Virus record (IMG/VR): IMGVR_UViG_3300009788_001732
Span: 73,963-104,336 of that record
Length of the DNA: 30,374 nucleotides
DNA from: a virus
Lineage: Duplodnaviria > Heunggongvirae > Uroviricota > Caudoviricetes
Direction: 5' to 3' (one strand)
Both the position numbers and the translations under genes were made by a program. Shown here in pieces: positions 5,794-23,853 of this stretch (the stretch's first letter is position 1; each line of letters opens with the position of its first letter). The notes beneath the pieces were generated by a model. The model searched no databases. It was not told where the DNA came from and was given only the letters and a program-made list of their open reading frames with translations.

Positions 5794-5980
5794 TTGTACT
5801 GTGTGCAGCAAAGAATTTGATTCAAATGAACTCGATGCGAATGGAGTATGCGAACCTTGCAGTCCTGATGACTCATTTATGTACGGCTTCAGCGATGACG
5901 ATTTCAGAGACACTCCAGATGATGAAATAGACGACTGGGAAGGGGACGACTGGGAGGATGACGAATGGGAAGTGTCCTAA
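5780..5980 (+). CDS. Zn-finger protein with very acidic tail
   Basis: CTVC...CEPC then a D/E/W-rich tail; GGAGA RBS. Confidence 0.7.
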   Translation: MVKIDCTVCSKEFDSNELDANGVCEPCSPDDSFMYGFSDDDFRDTPDDEIDDWEGDDWEDDEWEVS

Positions 5981-6642
5981 AGCCGCGCGATCATATGAAC
6001 CTTGCCAATATGTGCAAGTCAAACTACGCCTTACATAACTGGTGGAGTGACTGGATCATTGAATCGACGGATCACCTTCATAAATTCAGTGTAGAAAACA
6101 TGGCTTTCTATTTTCTGCGAAGCCAGGGCGTTTTGTATCTTACCATTCGTGGATCAGATGACATTTGGGACTGGATGTATAATATTCGTGCCGGTTCACT
6201 TCTTACGAACGGCATTCACCAAGGTACCTACCTCCTCCATAAGAAAATCTGGCCCAAAGTCAGAGAGTTTGTTAATGATAATTGGTGTCCTCATGACTGC
6301 GATCAACTTGTTATAGGTGGTCATAGTATGGGTGGAATGGTCGCACTTACGATTCTCCGTGAGCTTATTGCCGTAGAAAACCGTCCTGTCCGAGCGACGG
6401 CAGTGTTTGGGACACCGTCGCCGTTTAGTCTCTTTCGCGGTAAACACGAAGCAAGCCAAGACTGGACAGCAAATCTGACCCGTTATGTCAACGGAAATGA
6501 CATCGTGCCACGCCTATTGAATTGGCGAGGTAATTACCCTGTCGGCAAGGAAGTTAAGATTGGTAAATCAGCGCGGTGGCGGTTCTTTAAAAGTTTTTCT
6601 GATCATAACATGGCCGAATATGTAAAAAGCATGTCGCGTTGA
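5965..6642 (+). CDS. Class 3 lipase (alpha/beta hydrolase)
   Basis: IRGSDD..DW..N lid region, nucleophile GHSMGG, NDIVP Asp, DHNM His. Confidence 0.9.
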   Translation: MGSVLKPRDHMNLANMCKSNYALHNWWSDWIIESTDHLHKFSVENMAFYFLRSQGVLYLTIRGSDDIWDWMYNIRAGSLLTNGIHQGTYLLHKKIWPKVREFVNDNWCPHDCDQLVIGGHSMGGMVALTILRELIAVENRPVRATAVFGTPSPFSLFRGKHEASQDWTANLTRYVNGNDIVPRLLNWRGNYPVGKEVKIGKSARWRFFKSFSDHNMAEYVKSMSR

Positions 6643-7675: not shown

Positions 7676-8035
7676 ATGAATCAATCGTTAGATGGAGATG
7701 AAAGTGTTTTGAAAGCGTTGCTTAGTAAACAAGATGAGCAGATAGCTCTGCTTAAACTGCTTGTTCAAAAAAAGTATGAACAATCTCAAAGACTGTCTCA
7801 ATGGAAGAATAAGAACCCTGCGTTGGCTAAGCGCTGTCACGCGGCTGCTACAAAAGGCCAGGGACTCTTGGACCAAATGATTGATAAACTTGTGCAAATT
7901 CTTGAAGACACAGATGATGACCTTGATGACTATCAAAAACTGTTCGCAATAAGCGAATTCATAGATACACACGGGTACAAATTTCAACAATTTAGTATGA
8001 TACTTCAGACACTGGGCCAGTTAGGAAAAGCATGA
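7676..8035 (+). CDS. Helical hypothetical protein
   Basis: GGAG RBS; stop overlaps the next start. Confidence 0.75.
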   Translation: MNQSLDGDESVLKALLSKQDEQIALLKLLVQKKYEQSQRLSQWKNKNPALAKRCHAAATKGQGLLDQMIDKLVQILEDTDDDLDDYQKLFAISEFIDTHGYKFQQFSMILQTLGQLGKA

Positions 8036-8748
8036 AACAATTGTTTATGATATTGGCGGCCCTCTCCGTAACTACGCCGACCTTTGCACAGCTTCCAACT
8101 GTTACACAGATGGTGCCCGAGAGTGTCGTTCGCATTTATGTGAATGAAAACAGAGATCAAATACCTGATTCATATGGCTCCGGCGTATTGATTTCACCCA
8201 CACAAATCTTAACCAACTATCACGTTGTTGAAGACCGGCGCAAAGACCGCCGAAATAATAGTCGCGCAGTGCAGGTTCGTTTTGCAGATGGTTCACGCAG
8301 TTATGCAGTCGTTATCTCACAAAATAAACTGTGGGATATAGCTCTTTTAGGAATCCATGCAACTAAACTGACGCCCATTACCATCGGGAACCGTCCAAAG
8401 GCTGGCGACAAGGCGACAATTCAAGGCTTGGGACCTGATTACGAATACAAACAGCAGACGGGCACAGTCAGTGATGCCAAATTTCACCCAGAGTACCACT
8501 CTGACAAAACAGACTATATTGAAATCTTAGAAGTTCGTGCGCGTGGGGGTGACAGCGGTGGGCCGATTACCGACATACATGGAAATCTTGGCGGTCTTCT
8601 GCATGGCGCCAGTGATCAAAGCGAAAAACCTTATACTCAGGGCACAACGATCGATCGTATCCGAAAGGTTTTCGGGTCGAAAATGAAGCCTAGTCGAGTC
8701 GCTGAATCGGACTACACCCTCTACAAAGAAAAGTCAAATGAGAAGTAA
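8032..8748 (+). CDS. Exported trypsin-like serine protease (S1)
   Basis: Signal peptide; GSGVLI, TNYHVV (His), WDIALL (Asp), GGDSGGP (Ser). Confidence 0.92.
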   Translation: MKQLFMILAALSVTTPTFAQLPTVTQMVPESVVRIYVNENRDQIPDSYGSGVLISPTQILTNYHVVEDRRKDRRNNSRAVQVRFADGSRSYAVVISQNKLWDIALLGIHATKLTPITIGNRPKAGDKATIQGLGPDYEYKQQTGTVSDAKFHPEYHSDKTDYIEILEVRARGGDSGGPITDIHGNLGGLLHGASDQSEKPYTQGTTIDRIRKVFGSKMKPSRVAESDYTLYKEKSNEK

Positions 8749-10214: not shown

Positions 10215-10451
10215 ATGTACTTCAAAGTTGACAATGGTATACTGGCACCCGCAAAGCGTGGCATCGAGATCGACACCAGCAAGTACAAAGTGCAGATCAA
10301 CAGCAAACATTTTCAGTTGTCAGCCGACGACCAGCATCATAACTTTCTGATCGATTTTGGGATAAGCCAATCCAAGCGGAACACAGTTATCTGTGACAAT
10401 GCTGGTGAAATGCTTCACATTTTAGCTCTCATTAAAATGGCATTTGGCTAA
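10215..10451 (+). CDS. Hypothetical protein
   Basis: GGAG RBS; TAATG coupling to def. Confidence 0.7.
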   Translation: MYFKVDNGILAPAKRGIEIDTSKYKVQINSKHFQLSADDQHHNFLIDFGISQSKRNTVICDNAGEMLHILALIKMAFG

Positions 10452-11014
10452 TGGAAATCCTGAACTATCCGCACCCGATCCTACGGTTCAAGACACGGGA
10501 AGTAAAGAAAGTTGATGAGAACTTTCGTGAGCTTGCTGATGAGATGCTTGCAACTATGCGTGCTGAAAAGGGCAGCGGCTTATCAGCAAACCAAGTCGGA
10601 TTCCCATTTCGCATGCTTGTCGTTGATTACCAGGGCTCGGAATTCTGTTTAGTTAACCCCGTCGTCAAACCATTTGGTAAACCAAAAGCTAAAAAAGAAG
10701 GCTGCTTATCATTTCCGGACGTGTTGATTGAGATCAAACGTTGTACAAAATGTCACTTGATGGCGCATGACTTATATGGAAACTATATTGATCAAAATAT
10801 CAGTGGAGATTTGGCGAGGATTGTCATGCACGAGACGGACCATCTCGATGGCATGTTATTTATTGACAGACTGACAGAGTTGCAGCTAAAGTTTATTTAC
10901 CCACAATTAGCAGTAATGGACCGAGTTTGGAATTCTTCAGAACATAGCTTTCCTGCCGGCGCTTTCAATGAACTTTTGTATGATTACTGCGATGTAGAGC
11001 GCCCCACAACATAA
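10451..11014 (+). CDS. def: Peptide deformylase
   Basis: All three PDF motifs: GSGLSANQVG, EGCLS, HETDHLDG. Confidence 0.95.
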   Translation: MEILNYPHPILRFKTREVKKVDENFRELADEMLATMRAEKGSGLSANQVGFPFRMLVVDYQGSEFCLVNPVVKPFGKPKAKKEGCLSFPDVLIEIKRCTKCHLMAHDLYGNYIDQNISGDLARIVMHETDHLDGMLFIDRLTELQLKFIYPQLAVMDRVWNSSEHSFPAGAFNELLYDYCDVERPTT

Positions 11015-11530: not shown

Positions 11531-11824
11531 ATGCCACAAGGTATCAAGAATCAAGACACCCGCGTCGCGGAGTTAGAGGCGTGGATCAATGACCTGCACT
11601 CTGGTATGTTCATTAACTGTGTCTACTGCGGTCATCGGCACGGCCGTAGTCGTGAAGAAATACCAGCCGATACCTTGCGACGCCATATATCAATGTGCCC
11701 GAAACACCCAATGTCAAAGTTAATTGACGAAGTGCAAGATGCTATTATAATGATGGACAGTCCGAGTCAGCGTGGTTTGGCGCGGAAGAAACTTCTTGAA
11801 GCAGTTTTAGAAGCGAGGGCATAA
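11531..11824 (+). CDS. Phage C2HC-type Zn-binding protein
   Basis: INCVYCGH...LRRHISMCPKHP. Confidence 0.75.
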   Translation: MPQGIKNQDTRVAELEAWINDLHSGMFINCVYCGHRHGRSREEIPADTLRRHISMCPKHPMSKLIDEVQDAIIMMDSPSQRGLARKKLLEAVLEARA

Positions 11825-12223
11825 ATGCCTGTTGACTGGAATTGCGAAACAACATCACACATTCCACATTGTGACGTCCCTAAAAACCCTACAAGAAAGT
11901 TCCCAGGTATAGGTGAGCCTAGGCGAATTCGTGTGTCTATCTTGCGGTATGAGATTGGTATTCATTATTACGTTTCCGTAGAGGCCGAGAATAATCCGTT
12001 CTGGAATGACTCAGAACAATCGTGGGTCGTTACGAGTGATGACCTAGATGTCCGCGAAGATCACGAGTCAAAAAGGTTCGACAGCTTTAATCGAGCAGTA
12101 AAATGGCTGCACCTTTACTGTGTTAAACACTTCTCGGATCAGAAAATGTACAGAGTTGTTGATAAGTGGGAAGAAGACTTTGATTGGCTTGATCCAGAAA
12201 CGTATCCAGAAGAACTATGGTAA
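11825..12223 (+). CDS. Hypothetical protein
   Basis: Abuts the upstream stop. Confidence 0.7.
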   Translation: MPVDWNCETTSHIPHCDVPKNPTRKFPGIGEPRRIRVSILRYEIGIHYYVSVEAENNPFWNDSEQSWVVTSDDLDVREDHESKRFDSFNRAVKWLHLYCVKHFSDQKMYRVVDKWEEDFDWLDPETYPEELW

Positions 12224-12248
12224 TCCGCAACTGACTTAGGAGATCAAA

Positions 12249-12809
12249 ATGAACGCTACTATTAAACGTTTGATGGAACGCTTCAAACACAACATGCCAT
12301 TAACTTTGGCACAATTTCGTCGATATAGTAAGGACAATCAACGCCGTATCGTCGCGTGTAATGCTTTACGAATGTTGCTTGCAAATAAAATTCAACCCGA
12401 GCATGTCTATGTTGACGTGCCTTTTACTAAAGCAGCAGAGAACACTCAAGCAGCACAATATATCAAGCGAAGGAGCAAAGCTGATTGTGTTGTATGTGCA
12501 TTAGGTGCACTGTTTACCGGGCACGTAATGGCTCTCGACAACCGCACAGTGAAAGCCTTTTCCAATTCAGATAGGCATGACATCATCGGCGCACTATCCG
12601 GCGGGTTTGATGAAGACACACTTATGCTAATCGAGATTTACTATGAGAACTGGGACGATAATAGTTCGTCTCATGACTGGGATGCCGAAACACTTGCTCA
12701 CGCTAAACGTTTTGGCGATGCTGTTATAAACGACTATGTTTCGATGGAAATAATTCTGGAAAACATTATCGAGCACGGCGACTTTTACCCCTATGAAATG
12801 TCCCTTTAG
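12249..12809 (+). CDS. Hypothetical protein
   Basis: AGGAG RBS; CVVCALGALF motif. Confidence 0.75.
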   Translation: MNATIKRLMERFKHNMPLTLAQFRRYSKDNQRRIVACNALRMLLANKIQPEHVYVDVPFTKAAENTQAAQYIKRRSKADCVVCALGALFTGHVMALDNRTVKAFSNSDRHDIIGALSGGFDEDTLMLIEIYYENWDDNSSSHDWDAETLAHAKRFGDAVINDYVSMEIILENIIEHGDFYPYEMSL

Positions 12810-12830
12810 TGAGACAACAAGGAATCTGAT

Positions 12831-13439
12831 ATGCCAGACACACCCTGGCTCGGCTGGCACTTTCTTTCTAAAGACCGCCGCTTGCGAGGCGGCTCACGCG
12901 AGATTGTGAGAGCCGGTAGAACCTTAGACTTCGCCGGCCGCCCAAAGCTTCATGTGCACGGGTTCCATGCCAGTCGACAAGTTATCGACGCACTTATATA
13001 CGCCCCCGGCCCCATTGTCGAGCGAGTCGAACTTGGCGGCACCATTGTAACCGGCACTGGTGTAGCTGTCGCACAAACACGCACCACACTCTGGATGGCT
13101 GATGTGACAAGAATTTTACATGAGTTTACCTCTGATGTTGTAGAAGATTTACTTATCAATGCGCAAGTCAATGACCGTCGTTCCTTAGACTCGATTGACA
13201 TGAAGAGAAAATGGCTCGCCAACGAAGTGACTGACGAGGAATTGCGTGCTGCAAAATGGGCTGCAAAGGATGCTATACAGGACGATGCAAATTATATTGA
13301 ACAGATTGCCGCGTGGACTGCTTCATGGACCTCCGCGTCAGATGCTGCCGCTACCGTCGCACGGCTCACTGTAGGTGACGCTGCACGGGGTACCTATAAT
13401 ACCATGCTCGAAGCGCGTCTTTTTCAACTAGTGCCATAA
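12831..13439 (+). CDS. Conserved-looking phage protein with Ala-rich helical C-terminus
   Basis: GWHF...GFHAS...DALIYAPG..RVELGG...RT.LW.AD pattern recalled from phage proteins. Confidence 0.75.
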   Translation: MPDTPWLGWHFLSKDRRLRGGSREIVRAGRTLDFAGRPKLHVHGFHASRQVIDALIYAPGPIVERVELGGTIVTGTGVAVAQTRTTLWMADVTRILHEFTSDVVEDLLINAQVNDRRSLDSIDMKRKWLANEVTDEELRAAKWAAKDAIQDDANYIEQIAAWTASWTSASDAAATVARLTVGDAARGTYNTMLEARLFQLVP

Positions 13440-13633
13440 TGATTGACTATTCGCAGGTTGAGTTATGTATTCTCGCTCTCGCTAAGTCGAGTGGCGGTGG
13501 TGAAGACATTCATGCTCAGGTTGCCAGCAAGATGTACGATGTTTCGCTCGACGAGGTGACACCCGTTATGCGTCGCCACGCAAAGGATGTCAATTACGGC
13601 GTGATCTATGGGCGGCGTTTTGGGTTCAAATAA
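13439..13633 (+). CDS. 64-aa miniprotein made of DNA polymerase family A motif A and O-helix (motif B)
   Basis: DYSQVEL..LA, then GEDIHAQVASKMYDVSLDEVTPVMRRHAKDVNYGVIYG; TAATG coupling to the upstream gene. Confidence 0.85.
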   Translation: MIDYSQVELCILALAKSSGGGEDIHAQVASKMYDVSLDEVTPVMRRHAKDVNYGVIYGRRFGFK

Positions 13634-13646
13634 AGGGAGCTTTGAT

Positions 13647-13838
13647 ATGAGTACACAAAACGGCAAGGCACTAGTTGCACTGACAGAGCTTGATATGATT
13701 AGCCTTGGGGTACTTAAACTACGTTCCGGATTACTGGGCGTTGATTTGACGGCTGGCGTCGCAAGTGCCCTCGATGATTTACGTTCGTCTCTCGCTAACC
13801 TGCGTCATGAATTAGAAGAGGTAGGCGAGCTAGGCTAA
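13647..13838 (+). CDS. Small helical hypothetical protein
   Basis: GGGAG RBS before ATG 13647. Confidence 0.65.
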   Translation: MSTQNGKALVALTELDMISLGVLKLRSGLLGVDLTAGVASALDDLRSSLANLRHELEEVGELG

Positions 13839-17022: not shown

Positions 17023-17583
17023 ATGAAGGTTTATACAACTGGGCAGGTCGCAAAAATCTGTAGAGTAAACGAGCGCGCTGTAAGAAAATGGTTTGACTCG
17101 GGCCGGCTCAAAGGCTACCGCATTCCCGGTTCACAAGATTATCGTATTCCTCGTAACTACCTGATCAAATTTCTAAAAGAACATGGGATGCTTGTAGGCG
17201 AGCTGGAGGATGCGATAATGACCAAGGTCCTGATTGTCGCTCACGATCAGGTAATGATCGAGAATCTGAAGCGCGAACTGGCCGAGTTATTCAAGACCTT
17301 GGTGGTGGATAGTGGCTTTGACGCAGGAATTCAGGTCGGGAGCTTCCGCCCAGATTGCATTGTCGTTGACTTTTCAATCGGTCATACTGAGGCGCTAAGG
17401 ATTTGTCGAAGTTTGCGTCGCAATTCGGAGTTTTCAGAGACCATTATAGTTGCCTTACTTGATTACAATTCGCCTTCTGACTTTGATCGTTGGAGTATCA
17501 ACGTGTTTAGAAAGCCGTTTGATACTGGCGTGTTGGCCGAGCGACTACAGACTCTCGTTGGTGGACCTGGTAAATCTTCATGA
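17023..17583 (+). CDS. Excisionase-type HTH plus receiver-domain regulator, planctomycete family
   Basis: TTGQVAKIC...KWFDSGRLKGYRIPGSQD.RIP..YLIKFLKEHGM; receiver with IVVDF and KPF; GGAG RBS. Confidence 0.9.
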   Translation: MKVYTTGQVAKICRVNERAVRKWFDSGRLKGYRIPGSQDYRIPRNYLIKFLKEHGMLVGELEDAIMTKVLIVAHDQVMIENLKRELAELFKTLVVDSGFDAGIQVGSFRPDCIVVDFSIGHTEALRICRSLRRNSEFSETIIVALLDYNSPSDFDRWSINVFRKPFDTGVLAERLQTLVGGPGKSS

Positions 17584-23013: not shown

Positions 23014-23853
23014 CTAGCTTGTGCGGTAAATATAGAAGGTAACACTACCATCCGTACAATCAACGGTTTCCTCGTTCTCGTTCCCATCGTAACCTGATAG
23101 AAAGTGTCTGCGCCCATCCATTTTAGCATCGCTTTTCCAGGCGTCACGATCGAAATAGTTCGCCATTGCTTCAGGAATCTCCAGGCATTCGTCTATGTAG
23201 TTGTTCAGCGACTCATCCCAAAGATCGTCTGCCTCATCGTCAGTAACAACTAGATACTCGCCATCATCCGCCGCGATAGATTCTCGACGATCCGTAACCG
23301 GGAGATTGTCAAAAGCTTCGCGCAGTGTGTCGCGGTGTGCGATAGCGTGCCCAGAATCATCAGATTTGGTACAAAGAAAATGCAGCGTATTGACCAAATC
23401 GTGCAAGCCGATCTTAGTCAACGGCTCCGTTTCAGGATTATTGCGAATCGTTCGCACCAATTCGTTATAACTAGGGAATAGGTAGCCCGGGTCGCCGAAT
23501 GGTACGCATCGCCTCTTATTGTCCGCTGCGCCTTGCTGGAAAGTTTTCGTTGTCCAACCGGGGGTGCGTGTGTCTGGGTACAGTATCCAAATCCCCGAAT
23601 CGGTTATCATCATCGGCCTTATAGACGGGTCATCATCGATTGCAATTTTTAATGCACGCCGAACCAATGCGACTAGTTGCCGCGCCTTGTCGGGAGATGT
23701 ACCTTGTAACCGCTGGTGCTCGTTAACGATGATCGACGTATCATCATACTTGCTAGCTTCTAGCTCATCCTCATCGCATTCTAGAAACTTGGCCAAGGCT
23801 GCAATACGCGCTTCATCAAGTGTTAATTCTTCGCTTGTCGTTTCTACGTTCAT
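23014..23853 (-). CDS. Acidic protein with ArdA-like C-terminus and central insertion
   Basis: ALAKFL...; EYLVVTDDEAD...IPEAMANYFDRDAWKSD...YDGNENE...YIYR. Confidence 0.6.
   Translation of the reverse strand: MNVETTSEELTLDEARIAALAKFLECDEDELEASKYDDTSIIVNEHQRLQGTSPDKARQLVALVRRALKIAIDDDPSIRPMMITDSGIWILYPDTRTPGWTTKTFQQGAADNKRRCVPFGDPGYLFPSYNELVRTIRNNPETEPLTKIGLHDLVNTLHFLCTKSDDSGHAIAHRDTLREAFDNLPVTDRRESIAADDGEYLVVTDDEADDLWDESLNNYIDECLEIPEAMANYFDRDAWKSDAKMDGRRHFLSGYDGNENEETVDCTDGSVTFYIYRTS

Follow-up and report, generated by a model that had tools for sequence, protein, structure and literature searches.

In bacterial Pol I, one face of the O-helix bears R702, K706, F710 and Y714 and meets the incoming dNTP. 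Sensors of phage family A polymerases have been described only recently. Avs19 senses the core domain of these enzymes independently of their catalytic Asp; its complex resisted modelling (bioRxiv 10.64898/2026.01.04.697583). aRES binds T7 polymerase according to an editorial (PMC13728456), a statement that the aRES preprint does not contain. Two phage protein families, PHROG 38792 (62 positions, unknown function) and PHROG 6982 (269 positions), are unnamed or labelled 'DNA polymerase', and no functional test of their proteins was found in the literature.

The mini-PolA gene

The window, i.e. the whole stretch of 30,374 nucleotides analysed here, forms the terminal part of a phage genome of 104,336 bp that is rated complete (IMG/VR record IMGVR_UViG_3300009788_001732, positions 73,963 to 104,336). 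It carries a 64-aa gene, termed mini-PolA, with the following features:

13439..13633, + strand: mini-PolA gene, 64 aa, comprising motif A helix, short Gly linker, helix N, fingertip loop and O-helix
13445..13468, + strand: motif A segment, residues 3-10 (Bst alignment; optional among relatives)
13505..13609, + strand: conserved family core, residues 23-57, comprising helix N, fingertip loop and O-helix (alignments, column counts)
13437..13441, + strand: TAATG stop/start overlap of a 202-aa ORF and mini-PolA (read from the sequence)

The ORF, which the earlier note had described as a stand-alone PolA fingers protein, was confirmed as such by PF00476 (56.7 bits against a cut-off of 34.3 bits, E 2.5e-15) and by Bst Pol I in the PDB (E 2e-9), whose chain residues 357-419 align with residues 3-58. 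With Bst numbering obtained by arithmetic from the chain residues (offset 296), D3 corresponds to D653, E8 to E658, D23 to D680, H25 to H682, R45 to R702, K49 to K706, Y53 to F710 and Y57 to Y714. D3, in the DYSQ motif, is thus the catalytic Asp and E8 the steric-gate residue, and the Arg, Lys, Phe/Tyr and Tyr of O-helix motif B are all present (R45, K49, Y53 and Y57). The dNTP-contacting D, R, K and Y residues are retained in this alignment, as claimed, with one correction for motif A: the conserved Arg of its 'ELR' is replaced by Cys. The strand before motif A is trimmed to two residues. From the motif A Asp to the Asp of DIH there are 20 residues, compared with 27 in Bst; a deletion between the two motifs was therefore borne out at a net 7 residues, not as the loss of the whole 13-residue stretch.

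PF00476 is matched at profile positions 157-220 of 381 only, and this coverage, together with the flanking frames, shows that motif C, the palm sheet and the thumb are absent, as had been stated for motif C and the remaining palm. A full-length Pol I HMM run on six frames of the window, with stops read through, matched only the mini-PolA ORF (E 7e-24; next best E 5.9) and found no PolA debris in the flanks. mini-PolA is non-catalytic and cannot polymerise, and it is not an active family A DNA polymerase. The identical protein occurs in other assemblies of the same phage, with DNA 99.96-99.97% identical, so it is not an assembly error. No Shine-Dalgarno is visible in the sequence before mini-PolA, and the TAATG coupling to the stop of the 202-aa ORF was read as described earlier; translation is probably coupled.

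A family of stand-alone N/O-hairpin proteins

Single-sequence searches with mini-PolA returned no relatives of similar size. The family was found via short matches in a profile-free search, some of which were complete small ORFs inside phage-like gene arrays, followed by iterated profiles that gave 242 matches of 28-153 aa. About 21 short matches of the iterated search, and most short matches of the profile-free search, were left out as ordinary Pol I fragments, judged by eye. The final set, including added loci and cultured phages, held 105 sequences of 46-152 aa, 84 of them non-redundant at 80% core identity. The ESM Atlas independently offered clusters, predominantly viral and 58-196 members in size, of proteins of 58-90 aa, which were taken as leads only; its shape search gave only TM <0.45.

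The core common to the relatives consists of helix N, the fingertip loop and the O-helix, and in mini-PolA its residues are D23, H25, A29, V40-T41-P42, R45, K49, Y53 and Y57; mini-PolA is a short complete ORF with the D-x-H...A...VTP...R...K...Y core that ends soon after motif B. Half of the relatives likewise end at most 15 residues past the motif B Tyr. Motif A precedes the core in 34 of 103 relatives, where its distance to the DxH Asp is mostly 17-21 residues compared with 27 in Pol I, so that the deletion of mini-PolA recurs and the same-length homologues that the earlier note had sought were found. Two thirds of the members have no upstream motif A, and neither the motif A start nor the Gly linker belongs to the family core; what is conserved as a unit is the hairpin of helix N and the O-helix.

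Other relatives carry the motifs in different places. A PNLQNIP-like motif follows the core in 13 relatives (six with TGRxS), though it lies upstream in PolA, and motif A follows the core in two relatives and in the phiKMV-type protein. Some relatives have the core in tandem or bear zinc ribbons, one zinc ribbon being of the primase CHC2 type; P0157-P0159 have two or three tandem hairpin copies. The different motif orders allow for several origins of the family, whose core spans only 35 residues. A pattern scan of bacterial genomes gave at least 120 matches, all in full-length ORFs among the matches listed, among which Gly711 was not universal in Pol I.

No description of an N/O-hairpin protein family was found in the literature, and the accessible part of the phiCbK paper does not discuss such a gene. 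PpY1 gp15 is an equivalent gene and is not among the genes deleted in the PpY1 deletion study. In databases the members are labelled hypothetical, DNA polymerase or DNA-binding protein. These mini-proteins form a real, selected, PolA-derived and undescribed family, whose function we infer. Among individual loci, the mini gene P0139 and the gene after it each have upstream a near-identical cassette of CTTGTATTATTGA plus a ribosome-binding site (L012 1005-1060 and 1305-1365), and in two related large contigs (L124 6143-8201 and L127 6673-8201) the mini gene comes after a gene for a class II tRNA synthetase and has an ArdC-like gene nearby.

Residue conservation and predicted structure

In the 84 cores, D680 is conserved in 100%, A686 in 98%, K706 in 96%, Y714 in 95%, H682 in 79% (Tyr in 17%), N709 in 64% and G711 in 20%, figures that are inflated because the profile and shared words came from PolA-like seeds and the Arg and Lys columns were used as anchors. 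Seven cultured members found by tblastn without the word filter kept D, K and Y in 7/7, R in 6/7, H in 5/7 and G711 in 0/7.

AlphaFold2 with 74 alignment rows predicted mini-PolA with pLDDT 86.5 and helices at residues 5-20, 24-33 and 42-57. The predicted hairpin superposes on PolA models with an rmsd of about 1 Å over 35-39 residues, and with the motif A helix included the rmsd rises to about 10 Å over 60-65 residues. The motif A helix is thus placed unlike in the enzyme, and a rebuilt dNTP pocket is not supported. Homodimer prediction scored 0.02, a value that speaks neither for nor against a dimer.

These results bear on whether the His/Arg/Lys/Tyr face acts as a sponge for a triphosphate or pyrophosphate ligand, possibly a chain-terminating or signalling nucleotide from a host defence, thereby shielding the phage PolA. 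The residues retained are the ones through which Pol I contacts dNTP and pyrophosphate, and the Klenow-dNTP/PPi structure 1KFD was among the fold matches. A sponge function is common among small early proteins of phages (PMC12393519). Such a role is nevertheless unlikely. The metal-binding motif A is not upstream of the core in two thirds of the members, and its Asp is Glu in the PPWS2 member; the H682 equivalent is Tyr in 17%, the closest orthologue among them; the motif A helix is not modelled as in PolA; and a lone hairpin would offer a shallow site.

Purifying selection

P0169 is the orthologue of mini-PolA in the related phage contig L123, which shares many genes at 55-80% identity with the mini-PolA phage and holds the gene at a different position. 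Over 60 codons the two orthologues gave pN 0.24 and pS 0.72 (Fisher p 4e-8), equal to a dN/dS of about 0.13 with dS near saturation, inside the 0.08-0.54 range of 11 neighbouring orthologue pairs. Other lineages gave 0.09 (P0184/P0189), 0.11-0.27 (Saclayviruses) and 0.30 (P0160/P0161), and the test was not significant for two very close pairs. It was thus shown that mini-PolA is a stand-alone phage protein under purifying selection, made from the N-helix/O-helix hairpin of a polymerase like bacterial Pol I, and that it belongs to a large family.

A neutral relic of a captured or decayed polA is accordingly very improbable. Many short PolA matches in databases are assembly fragments, and no relative of the exact mini-PolA protein exceeds 90% identity, both of which count for a relic; the pN and pS against P0169, the low dN/dS in three other lineages, the presence in unrelated phages of intact ORFs whose starts are coupled or have a ribosome-binding site of their own, and flanks without PolA debris all speak against it, and the substitution pattern refutes it. 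The earlier view of a selected mini-domain rather than decay is upheld by the same-size homologues, the dN/dS and the clean flanks; lack of similar-sized homologues, neutral evolution and decayed PolA in the flanks, which had been named as evidence to the contrary, were none of them observed.

Gene neighbourhood and the resident polymerase

mini-PolA lies downstream of a peptide deformylase gene in a cluster of small genes, with these further features:

12831..13439, + strand: 202-aa ORF upstream of mini-PolA, phrog_18326, weak Imm5-like match
11724..11751, + strand: near-consensus sigma-70 promoter, 11/12, heading the small-gene run 11825-13838 that includes mini-PolA
10451-11014, + strand: peptide deformylase gene, same small-gene cluster
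8032-8748, + strand: trypsin-like peptidase gene, same small-gene cluster
5965-6642, + strand: class 3 lipase gene, same small-gene cluster

The sigma-70-like promoter suggests that the run may be expressed early by the host polymerase. The 202-aa ORF is not a fixed partner, because P0169 has other neighbours.

Several further observations concern the genome. A 279-aa ORF (window 23014-23853, − strand), situated in the accessory region to which mini-PolA belongs, has a weak ArdA antirestriction match (E 1.8e-4, below the Pfam cut-off) and may be a second counter-defence gene. A pair of HTH_17/response-regulator-like paralogues (window 17023-17583, + strand; genome 2909-3802, − strand) and a DUF1571 homologue (genome 607-1449) suggest what is presumably a Planctomycete host. 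The first and last 9 bases of the genome are identical and the related phage L123 has genes continuing across the junction, suggesting a circularly permuted assembly.

The phage encodes its own PolA of 917 aa (genome 17597-20350, − strand), 67 kb from mini-PolA and with motifs A, B and C intact. The O-helix of this PolA is divergent, and the enzyme contains CxxC-rich insertions, one of them directly ahead of helix N; no relatives of it were found in a scan of viral contigs. mini-PolA gives no match to it and resembles bacterial Pol I more closely, with a median core identity of 57%. It is accordingly neither part of a split enzyme nor a copy of the resident gene. That mini-PolA is one piece of a split polymerase, as the earlier note had considered, would agree with its boundaries at motif edges. 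The only other PF00476 matches of the genome fall in the one intact 917-aa ORF, and PolA is likewise intact in other complete carriers; with no complementary pieces in the complete genome, the split enzyme is refuted and its probability is close to nil. Relic and split enzyme together take up a very small share.

Carriers and co-occurrence with PolA

Among the cultured carriers are Pectobacterium phages PPWS2 and CX5, Acinetobacter Saclayviruses and Friunaviruses, Ralstonia phage RP13, Vibrio phage KarBoss (as a fusion) and the phiKMV-type phages (ORF12). PPWS2 gp05, of 60 aa, has the same layout and TAATG coupling as mini-PolA. The mini gene is located in the left-end early region of T7-like carriers, with positions of 1.96 kb for PPWS2 gp05, 3.5 kb for Friunavirus APK89_07 and 5.8 kb for phiKMV-type ORF12. 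RP13 (L188 2941-3141) has two copies, one at 3.3 kb and the other at 168 kb, which apparently belong to a terminal repeat, and there the gene adjoins exonuclease III and ligase genes.

A full-length PolA separate from the mini gene was present in 16/16 complete or cultured carriers checked, from about 13 lineages, and also in two partial carrier genomes. It was absent from three incomplete carrier records (79%, 28% and 26% complete), and neither PolB nor DnaE was found in two incomplete carriers without PolA. As background, any DNA polymerase is encoded by 563 of 1,514 phage groups at genus level and by 'more than half' of the genomes >40 kb (PMC11348598). At a background of 0.5, a generous assumption that is not size-matched, PolA in 13/13 lineages has a probability of about 1e-4. 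Of the roles put forward in the earlier note, decoy, dominant-negative and nucleotide binder are candidates, and this co-occurrence favours a role tied to the phage PolA. The mini gene lies at most 3 kb from polA in only two of 15 carriers.

One such role is that of a modulator of DNA replication or repair, in which the hairpin would serve as an inhibitor or accessory factor by binding either the ends of primer-template DNA or a polymerase, be it host Pol I or the PolA of the phage. The motifs added in relatives are the primer-contacting ones in PolA, and the same co-occurrence, the Pol I-like sequence of mini-PolA, the zinc-ribbon fusions including the primase CHC2 type, and the two carriers with the gene beside polA count for it. 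We regard it as rather unlikely, with the gene usually distant from replication genes (67 kb here) and shifted in position between related phages, and with the phiKMV-type 'DNA-binding protein' label being an annotation behind which no experiment was found in the literature.

A proposed decoy for polymerase sensors

The proposal that we tentatively prefer, while giving it somewhat less than an even chance, is that mini-PolA counters host defence as a decoy for sensors that recognise family A polymerases, Avs19 being one of them. mini-PolA would be made early and fold as an N-helix/O-helix hairpin displaying the conserved family A active-site face (His, Arg, Lys, Phe/Tyr and Tyr, here with motif A too); it would bind an Avs19-type sensor, possibly aRES, without switching it on, and so titrate the sensor away from the real PolA of the phage. 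That mini-proteins of this kind make up a widespread class of decoys, presenting shuffled active-site motifs of the protected enzyme in a non-activating form to bacterial family A polymerase receptors, is put forward with a little more reserve, and this reading would have the class hidden in well-studied phages (phiKMV-likes, Friunaviruses) under the labels 'hypothetical', 'DNA polymerase' and 'DNA-binding'.

The sensing of family A polymerases by Avs19 means that a target for a decoy exists. PolA in all complete carriers checked, the position of the mini genes among small early genes, and the retention of the dNTP-facing residues beside lower values for N709 and G711 were counted for the decoy, and the occurrence of motif A, PNLQNIP and TGRxS either before or after the core fits surface mimicry better than a folded enzyme fragment. 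Circumstantially, mini-PolA is a small gene of an early or accessory region, and its phage encodes a polymerase of the kind that is sensed. On the other side, Borvo senses phage polymerases and its escape mutations lie in the proofreading cleft, not in the fingers. The main difficulty is that mini-PolA looks like bacterial Pol I and gives no match to the divergent PolA of its own phage, which sits uneasily with a decoy of the latter; speculatively, a competitor that is host-like and does not activate the sensor would explain it. A PolA fragment could also trigger an Avs19-type sensor rather than block it. The probability that remains beside the decoy, modulator, sponge, relic and split enzyme goes to something else.

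Should the decoy proposal be true, a bacterial pattern-recognition receptor would be countered by a fragment decoy, of which no case was found in the literature, and natural 50-70-aa PolA mimics would point to the surface recognised by Avs19. Even without it, the proteins are a conserved, mis-annotated family in phages of Pseudomonas, Acinetobacter, Pectobacterium, Ralstonia and Vibrio, and since carrier phages can be grown and engineered, the function of the mini-proteins is directly testable.

Comparison with known systems

Avs19, aRES and Borvo are triggered by phage family A polymerases and would exert the selective pressure that a PolA decoy answers. No inhibitor made from a PolA fragment was found described in the literature; the inhibitors known so far, aRad1 among them, act by blocking the active site of the effector and have an unrelated fold. 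The divPolA1/2 genes likewise represent a second PolA-derived gene beside the regular polymerase, but they are divergent polymerases, proposed to be active, unlike the 50-150-aa fragments considered here (PMC11348598).

PHROG 38792 matches the hairpin of mini-PolA and its relatives. PHROG 6982 matches the hairpin as well, and its size and N-terminal hairpin fit the phiKMV-type 'DNA-binding protein'; this ORF12 has the hairpin at its start, a motif A-like segment downstream and about 230 extra residues compared with mini-PolA. The likeness to bacterial Pol I (Klenow, Bst and Taq; PF00476, TIGR00593) is clear homology, comprising helices N and O with motifs A and B and a hairpin that agrees to about 1 Å. 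In contrast to Pol I, mini-PolA has 64 aa and a 7-residue deletion, is devoid of motif C, palm sheet, thumb and exonuclease, and belongs to relatives in which motif A is optional and the motifs are reordered. The analysis contributes the size of the family, the shuffling of its motifs, the signs of selection from four lineages, its joint occurrence with PolA and the cultured carriers.
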